This document shows, in pieces, positions 1 to 24,836 of a stretch of DNA of 55,602 nucleotides (position 1 is its first letter; each line of letters opens with the position of its first letter). The notes beneath the pieces are model-generated. The model had not been told where the DNA came from and did no database searches. It saw only the letters and a program-made list of their open reading frames with translations. Origin of the DNA: a virus (Duplodnaviria > Heunggongvirae > Uroviricota > Caudoviricetes); the IMG/VR virus record IMGVR_UViG_2923286960_000003, positions 1-55,602 of that record; one strand, 5' to 3'. The position numbers and the translations under genes were made by a program.

Positions 1-1131
1 TCAAATGACCAGTTTTTTCCATTCCTTACCGCGTGCGTCGTTGTAAATATCGGTCATTTTTTGATTCGAATGGCCTAGCAAAATTTTGGTATCAACCCCC
101 TGCTCTCTGAACAATCGCTCTGATAAAGATCTCTGCTCATGGAAAGAGGGTGGGGTGCCATTAGCACGCCAGTTGTAATCCACAGAATCCCGGGCTTTTT
201 TAAATGCAACGGTTAATGTTGCTGGCTTAACCATCCCGCCGCGCTTAGCTGTCCCTTTCGCGTGATGGTGGTGCAATAGCCACGGACTAAGAACGCAATC
301 GCGGCAGGATGACACTACATCATCCAGGGTGAGATTTAATTTATCGCAACGCAGAGCCAGAGGGATGGCAATCCGGGTTCCTGTTTTTTGCTGTTCGACA
401 TGAAGATAACCATCCCGGATATCCGAAAATTGCATTTTGCAAATATCTGAAAGGCGCTGGCCTGTCATCAGTGCCAGCAGCATACCGCGCTGTAAAAAGT
501 AACCATTCTTTTCCGCTGCGTTATAAATCATCATCCACTCATCAAAAGTCAGTCGCTGTCTTGATATCCGCACCTGCGGTTTTTTTGCTGATTCTGCAGG
601 GTTAAAGCCTGGCGGGACATCGCCCGTTTGCTGAGCTTCCCGGAAAACATCGATCAGTACTTTCCTGAAAATTTGTCCCATTCTGTTATGTCCTCTGGCC
701 TTGTACTCTTCCAGTACTGATACCACATCTTTTACGGTTATGGCATCTAACGGTCTGGTGCCAAAACGTTCATCAAATACCCTGAGAGGGGCCGCTTTCT
801 GTTTCAGCGTGTTGAGTTTGATCTCGCCGTTTTCATATCTTTCCTGTTGAATTTTTCTGTAATTATTCAGAAAAATGGTAACGGTTGATGAACCGCCGGT
901 ATCACTAATAATTTTCTCCTGCAGACTGAGCATTTGTTCCATTTGCTGCCGGGCAAGACGGCTGTTCGCTTCTGCTGCAATAGTTTCTGCCAGTTTCTGG
1001 TCAATACTGCCGAGACCGTGATTTTTGCCTGTTATGGGATGCCTGTAACGCCAGTAAACTTTGTTATTTCTTTTGTCAAAATACGGAGATAATCCCGGAA
1101 CATCGGTTTTATATTTTCGCGGGCGCGCCAT
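1..1131 (-). CDS. int: phage integrase (tyrosine recombinase)
   Basis: 376-aa ORF with tyrosine-recombinase-like C-terminal region (R...H...Y spacing, LGHSNQKMTDIY); overlaps a small xis-like ORF upstream; sits at prophage edge. Confidence 0.85.
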   Translation of the reverse strand: MARPRKYKTDVPGLSPYFDKRNNKVYWRYRHPITGKNHGLGSIDQKLAETIAAEANSRLARQQMEQMLSLQEKIISDTGGSSTVTIFLNNYRKIQQERYENGEIKLNTLKQKAAPLRVFDERFGTRPLDAITVKDVVSVLEEYKARGHNRMGQIFRKVLIDVFREAQQTGDVPPGFNPAESAKKPQVRISRQRLTFDEWMMIYNAAEKNGYFLQRGMLLALMTGQRLSDICKMQFSDIRDGYLHVEQQKTGTRIAIPLALRCDKLNLTLDDVVSSCRDCVLSPWLLHHHHAKGTAKRGGMVKPATLTVAFKKARDSVDYNWRANGTPPSFHEQRSLSERLFREQGVDTKILLGHSNQKMTDIYNDARGKEWKKLVI

Positions 1132-18414: not shown

Positions 18415-18789
18415 ATGCTCATAGATTTGGTTTTACCTTACCCGCCGACGGTGAACACTTACTGGCGACGCCGTGGCAGCACATATTTTATCTCGGAGGA
18501 GGGAAAGCGTTATCGCCGGGCTGTGGCGCTTATTGTTCGCCAGCAGCGGCTGAAATTAAGCCTGTCCGGAAGGCTGGCGATAAAGGTGATTGCAGAGCCA
18601 CCGGATAAGCGTCGTCGCGACCTGGACAATATCCTGAAAGCACCGCTGGATGCGCTGACGCATGCGGGAGTGTTAATGGACGATGAGCAGTTTGATGAAA
18701 TCAATATCGTTCGTGGTCAGCCAGTATCTGGTGGACGTATGGGGGTGAAGATTTACCCCATAATGCATGAAGAGCAGGTCAAAAAATGA
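18415..18789 (+). CDS. rusA: RusA Holliday junction resolvase
   Basis: 124 aa; LPYPPTVNTYW...DKRRRDLDNILKAPLDALTHAGVLMDD matches RusA signature. Confidence 0.85.
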   Translation: MLIDLVLPYPPTVNTYWRRRGSTYFISEEGKRYRRAVALIVRQQRLKLSLSGRLAIKVIAEPPDKRRRDLDNILKAPLDALTHAGVLMDDEQFDEINIVRGQPVSGGRMGVKIYPIMHEEQVKK

Positions 18790-19607
18790 AACTGGAAGAT
18801 TTACCGAAATACTACTCCCCAAAATCCCCTGGCCTGACCGATGCATCGGCCTCAACGTCAAAAGATGCGCTGAGTATCACTGATGTGATGGCCGCGCAGG
18901 GCATGACACAGAATCGGGCTGAGATGGGGTTTTCTGCGTTCCTGGGGAAAATGGGCATCAGTATGAATGACAGGGCGCGGGCAACAGAATTACTGGCAGA
19001 TTATGCACTCAGTCGGTGCGATCGTGTGGCGGCGTTGAGAAAACTTCCGGCAGAAATAAAACCGGTAGTGATGCGCATTATGGCTTCGTATGCGTTTGAA
19101 GATTATGCCCGTAGCGCGGCGAGCAAAAAACAGTGCCCCTGCTGTCACGGAAAAAAATTTATTGAAAGCGAGGTTTTTACAAACAAGATCCAGTATCCGG
19201 ATGGTAAGCCACCAGTGTGGGCAAAGTGCACAAAAGGCGTGTATCCGTCTTACTGGGAAGAATGGAAAAAAGTCAGGGAGGTGGTAAAAGTTGCCTGTCC
19301 GGAGTGTGGCGGAAAGGGTGAGGTTTCCACCGCCTGTAAGGATTGCCGTGGGCGTGGTGTCGCCATTCATCGTGAAGAGTCGGTAAAACGTGGTATGCCT
19401 GTTATCAGAGATTGCCAGCGTTGTGGTGGTCGTGGCTGTGAAAGGCTGCCATCAACGGAGGCATTTAATGCCATATGCAAAGTGACGAGTGCTATCACGC
19501 TTGATACGTGGAAAAAATCAGTGAAACGCTTTTACGATACGTTGGTGGTTCGGTTTGACATTGAAGAGGCATGGGCGGAGCGGCAGTTAAAGAGGGTAAC
19601 GCGATAG
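18786..19607 (+). CDS. late gene antitermination protein Q
   Basis: 273 aa, translationally coupled to rusA; multiple CxxC zinc-finger pairs; precedes terminator and late genes. Confidence 0.75.
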   Translation: MKLEDLPKYYSPKSPGLTDASASTSKDALSITDVMAAQGMTQNRAEMGFSAFLGKMGISMNDRARATELLADYALSRCDRVAALRKLPAEIKPVVMRIMASYAFEDYARSAASKKQCPCCHGKKFIESEVFTNKIQYPDGKPPVWAKCTKGVYPSYWEEWKKVREVVKVACPECGGKGEVSTACKDCRGRGVAIHREESVKRGMPVIRDCQRCGGRGCERLPSTEAFNAICKVTSAITLDTWKKSVKRFYDTLVVRFDIEEAWAERQLKRVTR

Positions 19608-20181: not shown

Positions 20182-21231
20182 ATGCTTAATACTGTAAAAA
20201 TATCCAGTTGTGAGTTAATCAACGCCGACTGCCTGGAATTTATCCGGTCGTTACCCGAAAATTCTGTTGACCTGATAGTCACGGACCCGCCGTACTTTAA
20301 AGTGAAGCCTGAGGGCTGGGATAACCAGTGGAAGGGCGACGATGATTACCTGAAGTGGCTGGACCAGTGTCTGGCGCAGTTCTGGCGGGTGCTGAAACCT
20401 GCCGGAAGTCTTTACCTGTTCTGTGGTCATCGCCTGGCATCTGATATCGAAATCATGATGCGTGAACGCTTCAGTGTGCTGAACCATATTATCTGGGCGA
20501 AGCCGTCCGGACGCTGGAACGGATGCAACAAGGAAAGCCTGCGGGCGTATTTCCCCGCCACAGAGCGCATTCTGTTCGCGGAACATTATCAGGGGCCGTA
20601 TCGTCCGAAAGATGCCGGGTATGCGGCGAAGGGCAGTGCACTGAAACAGCATGTGATGGCCCCGCTGATTTCTTACTTTCGTGATGCGCGCGCGGCCCTG
20701 GGGATAACGGCAAAACAGATTGCAGATGCCACAGGAAAGAAAAACATGGTGTCGCACTGGTTCAGTGCCAGTCAGTGGCAGCTACCGAACGAAAGCGATT
20801 ATCTGAAATTACAGTCGCTGTTTGCCCGGGTGGCAGAAGAGAAACATCAGCGCGGTGAACTGGAAAAGCCCCACCACCAGCTGGTGGATACGTATACGTC
20901 ACTGAACCGGCAGTATGTGGAGCTGCAGAGTGAATATAAGCATCTGCGGCGGTATTTTGGTGTGACGGCGCAGGTGCCGTACACGGATGTGTGGACACAT
21001 AAACCGGTGCAGTTCTATCCCGGGAAACATCCGTGCGAAAAACCGGCAGAAATGCTGCAGCAGATAATCAGCGCAAGCAGTCGTCCGGGTGACCTGGTTG
21101 CAGATTTTTTTATGGGCTCAGGTTCAACGGTAAAAGCTGCACTGGCGCTCGGGCGTCGTGCGATTGGCGTTGAACTGGAGACCGGACGTTTTGAGCAGAC
21201 AGTCAGGGAAGTTCAGGATTTAATCGTTTGA
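20182..21231 (+). CDS. DNA methyltransferase (N6-adenine/N4-cytosine type, beta class), orphan
   Basis: DPPY motif (VTDPPYF) near N-terminus and FxGxG SAM motif (DFFMGSGST) near C-terminus; no adjacent restriction gene. Confidence 0.85.
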   Translation: MLNTVKISSCELINADCLEFIRSLPENSVDLIVTDPPYFKVKPEGWDNQWKGDDDYLKWLDQCLAQFWRVLKPAGSLYLFCGHRLASDIEIMMRERFSVLNHIIWAKPSGRWNGCNKESLRAYFPATERILFAEHYQGPYRPKDAGYAAKGSALKQHVMAPLISYFRDARAALGITAKQIADATGKKNMVSHWFSASQWQLPNESDYLKLQSLFARVAEEKHQRGELEKPHHQLVDTYTSLNRQYVELQSEYKHLRRYFGVTAQVPYTDVWTHKPVQFYPGKHPCEKPAEMLQQIISASSRPGDLVADFFMGSGSTVKAALALGRRAIGVELETGRFEQTVREVQDLIV

Positions 21232-21280: not shown

Positions 21281-21356
21281 GGCCCTTTAGCTCAGTGGTG
21301 AGAGCGAGCGACTCATAATCGCCAGGTCGCTGGTTCAAATCCAGCAAGGGCCACCA
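21281..21356 (+). tRNA. tRNA with CAT anticodon (Met or Ile2/lysidine type)
   Basis: hand-folded cloverleaf: acceptor GGCCCTT/AAGGGCC, D-stem GCTC/GAGC, anticodon loop CTCATAA, T-stem GCTGG/CCAGC, encoded CCA. Confidence 0.8.
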
Positions 21357-21363
21357 TCACATA

Positions 21364-21440
21364 CCGCCATTAGCTCATCGGGATAGAGCGCCAGCCTTCG
21401 AAGCTGGCTGCGCGGGGTTCAAGTCCCCGATGGCGGTCCA
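21364..21440 (+). tRNA. tRNA-Arg (anticodon TCG by hand fold)
   Basis: acceptor CCGCCAT/ATGGCGG, D-arm TAGCTC...GAGC, anticodon loop CTTCGAA, T-stem CGGGG/CCCCG, CCA; C1-G72 and U73 are unusual. Confidence 0.65.
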
Positions 21441-21696: not shown

Positions 21697-21893
21697 TTGT
21701 CTGGCTGCCGGAGAATTTGTTAAAAATTACATCGCATGGTGAATCCCCCTCAGCGGCGGGGCATCTGGCAAAGTGTATGATCCAGAGAACATGCAAATTC
21801 AGTAGACAGGCTGAATTTACCGGGAGGCCCCTGGCACCATGCGACAGACAGAAATTAGGCTATACTTCAGCCCCTCTCCGGAGGGGCTTTTCT
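21697..21893 (+). ncRNA. structured ncRNA-like element, copy 1
   Basis: promoter-like TTGTCT-17-TTAAAA, 8-bp closing helix GCATGGTG(21734)/CACCATGC(21835) enclosing several hairpins, then terminator agcccctctccggaggggcttttct. Confidence 0.4.
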
Positions 21894-22156
21894 GTGCAGG
21901 ATGTGTCACAGTTTCCTGAATTCTGAGTACTGTCCTGTTACTCAGGGTGCTATATTTTCTGACGTGATGAAAGTCTGCCGGAAGGCGGAACGTATCGGAA
22001 ATGACCCAGTAGAGAAAACGTTGACTCAGATACCGATGCTGAGTTACCGGGAAACCGGCATCACATGACCGCTATCCTTCCAGGCTCGCTCCGGCGGGCC
22101 TTTTTACTGCAGAAAACAGTTTTCCCGTAAAATGCCACGTTGCTCATAATTCAGGC

Positions 22157-22350
22157 TGGCGATTATTGTCTGGCCGGCGGGAAGTTTGTTAAAAAATTTC
22201 GCATGGTGAATCCCCCTGTGCGGAGGGGTAATCAGCGAGTAGGTATATGGGATAATCGCGGATTCAGGTGCTGGTACTGAATTCACCGGGAGGCACCCGG
22301 CACCATGCAATGGCACATAGCGCCACTCTCCAGCCCCTCTCCGGAGGGGC
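22157..22350 (+). ncRNA. structured ncRNA-like element, copy 2
   Basis: same architecture as copy 1 (closing helix 22192/22292; terminator 22324-22341); stems conserved, loop sequences diverged. Confidence 0.4.
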
Positions 22351-22386
22351 TGTTTATATTGATTTTGTCAGATGTGAGTAAACTGC

Positions 22387-22722
22387 TTATGGACTTTGTT
22401 GTTTTAGCCCATAAGGACATATTTGCAGAGTGCAACGGTTATTAAAGCATTCATTCAATACGTTATCTGTATTTGTAGGGCATTCCTGGCTGTTTTTGAT
22501 TAAATTCCAGAATGTTTTATTGAATGGTACTACGTTGTAAATGGTTACAGGTAGCACTTTGTTATTGAGCATGATGCCTGTGTGAGTCAGTGTAAATATA
22601 CTTTCAGGAGGTAAGAAAGCATCCGATTGATACCAGATTATTAATTTTATTTTACTCCATATGACTGAAAAAGATATTCCGCATGATGGCTGGATAACTG
22701 TATCAATCACAATCCACTTCAT
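22387..22722 (-). CDS. hypothetical protein (111 aa) in AT-rich island
   Basis: ORF with AAGGAAA RBS; very AT-rich; no recognisable motif. Confidence 0.3.
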
Positions 22723-22967
22723 TTAGTTTCCTTGTTTATGCCTTGCTGGTGATGTTCTGAAAAGTATAAATGATATTTTTGATTGTAAACCATAGAGCAG
22801 AATTATTTTTCTGATGTTGTTTATTGTTTATTTAAATGCAGGGTGGTTTATATCTCGTCTTGTAGTTTATCCATGCATATCTGCTTGATGATGAGGTTTT
22901 TATTTAAGGTATGGTTTTGTGTTTTTTCTGTATTACATGTCAGGTATTTTAAAGAATCATTTTTCAG

Positions 22968-24836
22968 ATGGTGGAAAGAACCATGGCATTTAAACACTAT
23001 GATGTTGTCAGGGCGGCGTCGCCGTCAGATCTTGCGGAAAAGCTGACACATAAACTGAAAGAGGGCTGGCAGCCGTTTGGTAGTCCGGTGGCCATAACCC
23101 CTTATACCCTGATGCAGGCGATTGCAGCAGAAGGTGATGTGGTCGTCAGTGGTGCAACTGAGCCGGAGTGGTACTACGTCATCGTACTGGCCGGGCAGTC
23201 CAATGCCATGGCTTACGGTGAAGGGCTTCCGCTGCCGGATTCATACGATGCTCCGGATCCGCGCATTAAACAGCTGGCGCGCCGCAGTACAGTGACGCCG
23301 GGTGGGGCTGCCTGCAGATATAACGATATTATTCCGGCCGACCACTGCCTGCATGATGTGCAGGATATGAGTACGCTGAATCATCCGAAGGCAGACCTGA
23401 GCAAAGGGCAGTACGGCTGTGTCGGCCAGGGCTTACATATTGCCAAAAAACTGCTTCCGTATATCCCGAATAACGCGGGGATCCTGCTGGTACCATGCTG
23501 TCGTGGTGGTTCGGCATTCACCCAGGGCGCGGAGGGGACATTCAGTGCGGACACGGGGGCCAGCCAGGATTCGGCACGCTGGGGTGTGGGTAAACCGTTA
23601 TATCAGGACCTGATTGCGCGCACTAAAGCTGCATTACAGAAGAACCCGAAAAATGTGTTGCTGGCGGTGTGCTGGATGCAGGGAGAGTTTGACATGAGCG
23701 CCGCCACCTACGCACAGCAACCTGCGCTGTTTACAGCCATGCTGAAGCAGTTTCGTGCTGACCTCACTGTGTTTAACGCGCAGTGTCATGGTGGCAGTGC
23801 TGCAGATGTGCCGTGGATTTGTGGTGACACGACGTATTACTGGAAAAATACATACGCTACCCAGTACGACACCGTGTACGGAGGGTATAAAAACAGGGAG
23901 AGTGAGGGCGTTTATTTTGTGCCCTTCATGACAGACGGTAACGGCGTCAATACCGCCACTAACGCACCGGCAGAAGATCCGGATATTCCGGCATCAGGAT
24001 ATTACGGTGCGGCATCGAGAACGAATGGAAACCAGGTATCATCAAACCGCCCGACACATTTCAGTTCATGGGCGCGCAGGAGCATTATTCCGGATCGTAT
24101 GGCAACTGCTATTCTGAACGTAGCCGGTCGCACCTCAGCCTTCATCAGTGGTAAGGCACCGGAAATCAAACCCTCGCCCGGCGGCGACACGCCATCGGGG
24201 CCGTCTGAAGATGCATCCGTACGCACAATCTCCCTGTTGCCGACAGCCGGAGATGCTGCTGCGCAGGGCTGGAGCATTAAGAATGGCGGAATTCAGTTGT
24301 CAGATGGTGTATTTAAGATCGCCAAGCAGAGCAATAAAGCCTGGTCCCTGACGCGCCCGGTGGATGACGCAGTCTCCCTGCTGACACGGGGTGGCAGACT
24401 GAGCTGTAAGTTTCGACTGTCAGGCGCACTGACCAACAACCAGTTCGGTCTGGGAATTTATCTGTATACCGATGTAGCGTTACCTGACGTCGTGGCGATG
24501 ACCGGGACTGGTAACCCGTTCCTGATGTCGTTCTTCACCCAGACCACAGACGGCAAACTGAATCTGATGCATCACAAGAAAGCCGGAAACACAAAGTTGG
24601 GCGAGTTCGGGAATTACAGTAACGACTGGCAGACGCTGGAGCTGGTGTTCACCGCCGGCAGTGCCACGGTTACTCCGAAACTGAATGGACTGGTTGGCCC
24701 GGCATTCCAGGTCATAAAAGACAGTCTGACACTGGGGCTGAATGCGCTGACGCTGACGGATGTTACAAAAAATGCAGCGTATGGCGTTGAGATAGAAAGT
24801 CTGGTGCTGGAGATAAATGCACCGGCATCATCATAA
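22968..24836 (+). CDS. prophage sialate O-acetylesterase, NanS-p-like (SASA/SGNH hydrolase)
   Basis: 622 aa; VLAGQSNAMAYGEGLP (GQSN block) and N-terminal KHYDVV segment; sits upstream of lysis genes as in Stx-type phages; start may be ATG 22983. Confidence 0.7.
   Translation: MVERTMAFKHYDVVRAASPSDLAEKLTHKLKEGWQPFGSPVAITPYTLMQAIAAEGDVVVSGATEPEWYYVIVLAGQSNAMAYGEGLPLPDSYDAPDPRIKQLARRSTVTPGGAACRYNDIIPADHCLHDVQDMSTLNHPKADLSKGQYGCVGQGLHIAKKLLPYIPNNAGILLVPCCRGGSAFTQGAEGTFSADTGASQDSARWGVGKPLYQDLIARTKAALQKNPKNVLLAVCWMQGEFDMSAATYAQQPALFTAMLKQFRADLTVFNAQCHGGSAADVPWICGDTTYYWKNTYATQYDTVYGGYKNRESEGVYFVPFMTDGNGVNTATNAPAEDPDIPASGYYGAASRTNGNQVSSNRPTHFSSWARRSIIPDRMATAILNVAGRTSAFISGKAPEIKPSPGGDTPSGPSEDASVRTISLLPTAGDAAAQGWSIKNGGIQLSDGVFKIAKQSNKAWSLTRPVDDAVSLLTRGGRLSCKFRLSGALTNNQFGLGIYLYTDVALPDVVAMTGTGNPFLMSFFTQTTDGKLNLMHHKKAGNTKLGEFGNYSNDWQTLELVFTAGSATVTPKLNGLVGPAFQVIKDSLTLGLNALTLTDVTKNAAYGVEIESLVLEINAPASS

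Follow-up and report, generated by a model that had tools for sequence, protein, structure and literature searches.

Between a group of STnc100 small-RNA elements and a nanS-p-like esterase gene in the late region of a lambdoid prophage lies a segment of 612 bp (22356-22967) that is strongly AT-rich and holds a reading frame of 111 codons on its minus strand. A preliminary description took it to be of foreign origin or a heavily silenced regulatory region at the toxin-cargo position of the late operon, and the question is thus whether the segment is spacer, regulatory DNA or a gene, and how its position relates to that of the toxin genes. The DNA analysed, referred to as the window, is the whole stretch of 55,602 nucleotides. 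The segment is almost certainly the already-described iraL gene with its own promoter, carried as a self-contained cargo ("moron") cassette of the prophage. iraL is a known gene, and its appearance here is a re-discovery of a published one.

The AT-rich segment and its gene

The window has the order of a lambdoid prophage, with Q, methylase, tRNAs, STnc100 copies, AT-rich island, nanS-p, holin and lysozyme following one another:

1-1131, minus strand: integrase
18786-19607: Q antiterminator
20182-21231: DNA methylase
21281-21440: two tRNAs
21704-21897, 21933-22108 and 22173-22361, plus strand: three copies of STnc100 (RF02076, from Rfam), between the tRNAs and iraL
22331-22352, plus strand: terminator hairpin of the third STnc100 copy (Rfam and terminator scan), left edge of the cassette
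22387-22722, minus strand: iraL coding sequence (from the list of open reading frames, ATG start), 111 aa, RssB anti-adaptor of the IraM family, 100% identical to CFT073 IraL
22856-22982, no strand: remaining AT-rich intergenic DNA, 29% GC, ending at the nanS-p start
22983-24836, plus strand: nanS-p-like esterase with DUF1737, SASA and DUF6645 (Pfam), right neighbour of the cassette
beyond nanS-p: holin, DUF1327 and lysozyme (Pfam-based context)

The GC content of the island is 32.5% as compared to 51.7% for the whole window, and the windowed analysis bears out its description as strongly AT-rich: it is the lowest-GC stretch of its size, with 0.016% of all 612-bp windows equally low and the minimum (32.2%) at 22353-22964. 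Both edges are sharp in steps of 50 bp. On the left the GC fraction drops from 0.66 to 0.32 near 22350, directly after the hairpin at 22331-22352, and on the right it rises from 0.32 to 0.50-0.58 near 22975-23000. The coding sequence of iraL has 34.8% GC, the intergenic DNA upstream of it 29.4% and the adjoining nanS-p 54.6%. Runs of A or T of 5 nt or more occur seven times in the island, where about 2.7 would be expected in 612 bp of the window (about 2.6-fold), so that the reported tracts are indeed enriched, but as the longest has 6 nt, calling them long was an overstatement. A position between conserved phage genes, absence from related phages and deviant base composition are the traits of a moron, and the suggested foreign origin holds in the sense of a cargo segment of the late region whose composition is foreign. 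The Rfam search (E≤1) gave no RNA family within 22362-22967, and 22856-22982 contained no convincing repeats.

An 11-nt direct repeat is present on the plus strand at both edges of the cassette (22364-22374, TTTGTCAGATG; 22960-22970, TTTTTCAGATG). No empty site was found in which this repeat could be tested as an insertion scar. The phages YYZ-2008 and JLK-2012 were tried as a source of empty-site junctions, but in both of them unrelated, GC-richer DNA takes up the entire stretch that begins in the 3' part of the STnc100-like element and ends at the nanS-p ATG, and a precise insertion junction cannot be drawn. With neither an empty site nor an exact junction at hand, the repeat is best taken as a probable product of chance.

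Several independent observations identify the minus-strand frame as a real gene. The protein is identical at 111 of 111 positions to CFT073 IraL (WP_000871291.1), and it matches the NCBIfam model NF007393 (anti-adapter protein IraM) over residues 1-110 with 162 bits, the cutoff being 121. Its identity to IraM of K-12 is 62% over 107 aa without gaps, where 58.9% has been published for IraL and IraM (PMC4045071), and four near-identical matching phage records label the frame 'anti-adapter protein'. A search against the PDB with phmmer returned 8twd, the structure of IraM 1-78 bound to RssB (E=9e-32). Homology and structure searches thus both lead to IraL and the IraM family. When the island was shuffled 3000 times by dinucleotides, a frame of at least 111 aa appeared in only 0.7% of cases, and pairwise dN/dS values of 0.09-0.19 among four alleles that are 62-76% identical indicate that the coding sequence is under purifying selection. 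The local Pfam-A scan of IraL gave no family even at E≤1; precomputed annotation assigns PF11183 (PmrD) to 19 of 20 IraL relatives, a discrepancy of library version or threshold.

Of 5426 complete E. coli genomes, 1445 contain the DNA of the cassette at an identity of at least 90%, and a single genome may have as many as three copies. All these copies are annotated as IraM, and each has a complete SASA esterase or a fragment of DUF1737 as its neighbour. The protein family comprises Escherichia sequences down to about 54-60% identity. The frame is thus conserved in related prophages and does not align there as spacer, and the identity to IraL, the published function and the presence of the same DNA in so many genomes together argue for a cassette.

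IraL as an anti-adaptor: function, fold and RssB interface

IraL was described in uropathogenic E. coli CFT073, where it is encoded in the 'potB genomic island' (Hryckowian et al. 2014, mBio; PMC4045071). It stabilises RpoS in log phase as an anti-adaptor of RssB, to which it binds in two-hybrid and pull-down assays; deletion of iraL reduces the log-phase half-life of sigma-S to one half, the gene together with the 100 bp before it brings the half-life back in CFT073, and the same fragment raises sigma-S in K-12 too (PMC4045071). For the identical protein in the window, RssB binding, stabilisation of sigma-S and log-phase expression are taken from this published work. A sigma-70 promoter with its start site at 22755 on the minus strand would give an mRNA with a 33-nt leader that encodes IraL and runs antisense to the late operon. 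IraL would then bind RssB, a response-regulator-type adaptor, and RssB occupied in this manner would be unable to pass sigma-S (RpoS) to the ClpXP protease. With delivery blocked, RpoS would persist longer and the general-stress genes would be switched on, also in exponentially growing lysogens. The prophage of the window would in this way provide its host with a constitutive brake on RpoS proteolysis, a trait that has been linked to uropathogenic E. coli and Shigella (PMC4045071).

The CFT073 locus is the closest known relative of the cassette. Besides the identical protein, the two share about 98% of their DNA, including promoter, leader and downstream spacer, with ten point differences across the aligned 711 bp (22300-23010). 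Both are found in a lambdoid prophage in the same orientation, with Q, tRNAs, iraL on the minus strand, DUF1737/nanS-p and holin. CFT073 differs in having a truncated DUF1737 fragment and an IS200 nearby, whereas in the window nanS-p is of full length and STnc100 is present in three copies. Although the IraL proteins are identical, the integrases of the window and of the CFT073 potB prophage share only 44% identity, which shows the cassette to be common to different lambdoid backbones.

An AlphaFold2 model of IraL built from 12 family members (pLDDT 62) places beta-barrel strands at residues 2-66 and a helix at 69-77, with the tail (82-111) at pLDDT below 50. The only significant Foldseek matches were 8twd_A (TM 0.86 normalised to the target, rmsd 1.5) and PmrD (4hn7, E=6.6e-4, and 2jso). 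For IraM a 'PmrD-like fold' has been described (PMC10844676), with which the model is in accord, and residues 1-78 of IraL are accordingly modelled as a PmrD-like antiparallel beta-barrel with an alpha-helix. Among the 14 residues by which IraM contacts RssB (PMC10844676), 10 are identical in IraL; T13S, L75I and I64V are conservative and H63N is changed. The contacts have been divided into clusters I-III, and all five residues of cluster I are identical. K-12 IraM (YcgW; PDB 8TWD) thus resembles IraL in NF007393 membership, fold, most RssB contacts and a four-cysteine tail, and IraL is distinguished by four extra C-terminal residues (QQSP) and Asn in place of His63. Action in unstressed log phase and RssB contacts different from those of IraM have been reported for IraL (PMC4045071).

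The C-terminal part of IraL, residues 81-111 (22387-22479, minus strand), contains four cysteines, C81, C92, C97 and C102, in the arrangement CP-x9-C-x4-C-x4-CP. These cysteines and P82, I101, P103 and G105 are invariant in 13 of 13 family members down to 60% identity. In the work on the IraM-RssB crystal structure the tail of IraM was removed, and it was described as less conserved and flexible. Judged from this pattern, the tail of IraL and IraM may form a metal or redox site.

Promoter, regulation and the alternatives

The island was described as containing nothing besides the frame and its ribosome-binding site, AAGGAAA. The latter is present, but the mapped promoter and 33-nt leader of iraL are located here as well:

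22723-22755, minus strand: 5' leader of iraL, 33 nt, transcription start site 22755, from the mapped end of the published 5'-RACE
22733-22727, minus strand: Shine-Dalgarno sequence AAGGAAA, read from the sequence, 6 nt between AGGA and ATG, inside the published leader
22763-22768, minus strand: -10 hexamer TATACT, positions -13 to -8
22784-22789, minus strand: probable -35 hexamer TTTACA, positions -34 to -29, spacer 15 nt, uncertain
22723-22855, minus strand: promoter region equivalent to -100 to +33, from the sequence match to the CFT073 construct
22818-22834, plus strand: candidate PhoP-box-like direct repeat TGTTTA-TTGTT-TATTTA, centred at about -71, reverse to iraL

The published 5'-RACE end from CFT073, ACATCACCAGCAAGGCATAAACAAGGAAACCA (PMC4045071), maps to the window with a single mismatch in 32 nt, and the resulting leader of 33 nt agrees with the boundary of the '-100 to +33' construct of the same study. 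That region drives iraL in CFT073 from attTn7 or from a plasmid, and the promoter has been predicted to be of the sigma-70 type (PMC4045071). iraL of the window thus has a promoter of its own, on the strand opposite to the late operon. Within 22723-22855 the window differs from CFT073 at three positions, 22725 in the leader, 22756 (-1) and 22783, the first spacer base after the -35; neither hexamer is altered, and because of these three substitutions the strength of the promoter in the window can only be inferred. The aligned -10 reads TATACT, TATGAT or TATAAT in five diverged alleles. TTTACA is the probable -35, although the spacer of 15 nt is short and makes the assignment uncertain. It is intact in the window and in CFT073 and reads TTTATA in phage vB_EcoS-640R1, which may be the -35 point mutation reported for iraL2 of JJ1886 (PMC4045071). 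A generic sigma-70 scan of 22100-23100 with spacers of 16-18 nt returned three sites, no more than shuffled sequence did, and missed the published promoter, and the scan is for these reasons uninformative.

No canonical terminator was found after iraL on the minus strand. What follows is the shared STnc100 hairpin, which forms on this strand but without a U-tract, so read-through from iraL would be antisense to the STnc100 sRNA. A distance of 26 nt separates the stop of iraL from position 22361, where the convergent third STnc100 copy has its 3' end, and late or sRNA transcription would run antisense to iraL. Late, Q-antiterminated transcription would have to cross iraL in the antisense direction to reach nanS-p and the lysis genes.

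The PhoP-box-like repeat at 22818-22834 is the only match in the whole window with at most one mismatch to the consensus (T/G)GTTTA-N5-(T/G)GTTTA, and 3.5-6% of local shuffles of the island contain such a match. In four alleles (that of the window, with aligned sites in loci L007, L005 and L009) the repeat lies 92-96 bp from the ATG; the aligned site is perfect in the P0005 allele (TGTTTATTCTTTGTTTA) and has one mismatch in Stx2_EH1910 and two in E. albertii. Since iraM is induced through PhoPQ on Mg2+ starvation and belongs, with rssC of Salmonella, to the genes activated by PhoP, control of iraL by PhoP via this candidate repeat is a reasonable but unproven lead. A published test of iraL induction by low Mg2+ or through phoP was not found in the literature. 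IraL levels rise in a fur mutant of CFT073 (PMC7157518). The window contained no match to the 19-bp Fur consensus with three mismatches or fewer, which at this stringency gives no support to a direct Fur site.

AT-rich intergenic DNA is common in the late regions of prophages, and given the empty local Pfam search the segment might be thought a non-coding spacer or regulatory region in which the 111-aa frame arose by chance. This reading is already refuted, with a negligible probability, by the full identity to a characterised protein, the NCBIfam score above cutoff, the match to a solved structure, the low dN/dS and the rarity of frames of this length among shuffles. Hardly more credible is the view that the protein is a PmrD-like connector protecting some other response regulator, such as PmrA, and not RssB. 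PmrD, which connects PhoPQ with PmrAB, has the beta-barrel in common with IraL and is, as IraM, a small protein binding a response-regulator-type protein; both the fold matches and the precomputed PF11183 are in keeping with such a role. However, PmrD belongs to another sequence family with PmrA~P as its target, its identity to IraL is 13-14% versus 58-62% for IraM, 13 of the 14 RssB-contact residues are identical or conservative, and direct binding of IraL to RssB has been published (PMC4045071).

A third possibility, unlikely yet less remote than these, is that iraL is transcriptionally silent in this lysogen, by H-NS or by its promoter substitutions, and acts only after an inducing signal. 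The very low GC content of the cassette (30-35%) would suit such silencing, and the paralogue iraM is reportedly repressed by H-NS in K-12. The PhoPQ induction of iraM, along with a conserved PhoP-like box upstream of iraL, and the substitutions of -1, spacer and leader relative to CFT073 point in the same direction. Against it, the cassette that is about 98% identical shows log-phase activity without stress in both CFT073 and Shigella sonnei, it functions from a plasmid in K-12, which has H-NS (PMC4045071), and the -10 and -35 hexamers are unchanged. H-NS silencing of the island is plausible from its composition, but conflicts with the published log-phase activity (PMC4045071). The term 'heavily silenced regulatory region' does not suit a segment that is mainly a protein-coding cassette with a promoter nearly identical to one active in log-phase CFT073 (PMC4045071). 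By inference, the iraL cassette is expressed in the host of this prophage and is itself silent as regards phage induction.

An address beside the Shiga-toxin slot

A tblastn search found IraM-family genes in 46 phage records, with 60-80% identity in 41. Going by the organism names, 32 of these 46 records belong to Stx2c-, Stx2- or Stx2a-converting phages. The gene has been left unannotated in many of these records. In the Stx2a phage Stx2_EH1910 the order is tRNAs, stx2A, stx2B, an STnc100-like element, an ira allele on the minus strand and nanS-p, and the P0005 allele is arranged likewise. In loci L007 and L008 stx2AB and the ira allele are found side by side, with ira downstream of the STnc100-like element. 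The following alleles of Stx2a and Stx2c phages are located directly downstream of stx2AB:

L005, 4912-5235, minus strand: ira allele
L007, 3206-3541: ira allele
L008, 3173-3508: ira allele

The alleles of Stx2a and Stx2c phages have 72-76% protein identity to IraL and 65% to IraM. Those of Stx2_EH1910, 2851 and 1717 resemble the iraL locus in the STnc100-like terminator, the ira gene on the opposite strand, the AT-rich promoter and nanS-p, as well as in the conserved -10 and PhoP-like box; they differ from it in being directly downstream of stx2AB, the window being without stx. A functional study of the IraM-like alleles of Stx phages was not found in the literature. The Stx1 phage YYZ-2008 has stx1AB and no ira gene, and in both YYZ-2008 and JLK-2012 the STnc100-like element is followed by nanS-p without ira. 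Comparison of stx-positive and stx-negative relatives thereby corrects the placement of the island at the toxin-cargo position, since stx2AB lies between the tRNAs and the STnc100-like element and ira downstream of the latter. As the two occur side by side in the same phages, the ira slot adjoins the toxin slot, just downstream, and is not identical with it.

Diverged alleles with 76, 73, 66 and 60% identity have the same address and orientation as iraL and sit behind Q genes of three Pfam families (PF03589, PF06530 and PF06323). The iraM gene of K-12 is located in a degraded remnant next to e14, and its promoter region cannot be aligned with that of iraL beyond the -10. Taken jointly, these observations allow a tentative reading in which lambdoid and Stx phages carry the whole IraM family as cargo at one constant place, just before nanS-p and antisense to the late operon, with no fewer than three unrelated types of Q in front of it. 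It is equally tentative that a PhoP box in reverse orientation, some 95 bp before the start codon, is a conserved part of this arrangement, and that IraL and the alleles beside stx2AB might link PhoPQ (low Mg2+, acid, host signals) to the stability of RpoS in the lysogen. As speculatively, the CP-x9-C-x4-C-x4-CP tail could tune the stability of the anti-adaptor or its binding to RssB. Three by-products would be of modest importance: RpoS anti-adaptors of the IraM family appear to be standard phage cargo at a fixed address beside the Shiga-toxin slot, Stx2a and Stx2c phages carry a diverged ira allele of their own, and the conserved PhoP-like box is a hint of a remaining response of the 'log-phase' anti-adaptor to PhoPQ.

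E. coli O104:H4 2009EL-2071 has a cassette of the iraL type that is 99.5% identical to the one described here. In an rpoS start-codon mutant of O104:H4 'iraM' was found to be up-regulated (2026 paper). The 'iraM' of that study may in fact be iraL, which would hint at negative feedback by RpoS.

Some differences among the loci concern the neighbouring elements. Near-identical iraL loci elsewhere are shorter on the left side; in FDAARGOS_536, Q and iraL are about 565 bp closer together. Two of the three STnc100 copies in the window are strong (138 and 132 bits) and the copy at 21933-22108 is degenerate, its 30 bits being below the gathering score; STnc100 has been related to the prophage sRNA PasD (2026 preprint). 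Related loci carry a third tRNA (Arg), which is absent from the window. The tRNA at 21281-21356 (plus strand) was called tRNA-Met (CAT) by ARAGORN and is given as tRNA-Ile by RefSeq in near-identical loci, which we take to be the lysidine-modified type. On the right side, the true start of nanS-p is probably 22983 (MAFKHYD...) rather than 22968, where the first ATG stands: in a locus that is 100% identical RefSeq places the start at 22983, the codon at 22968 is ATA in CFT073, and homology to phages without ira resumes just before the ATG at 22983.
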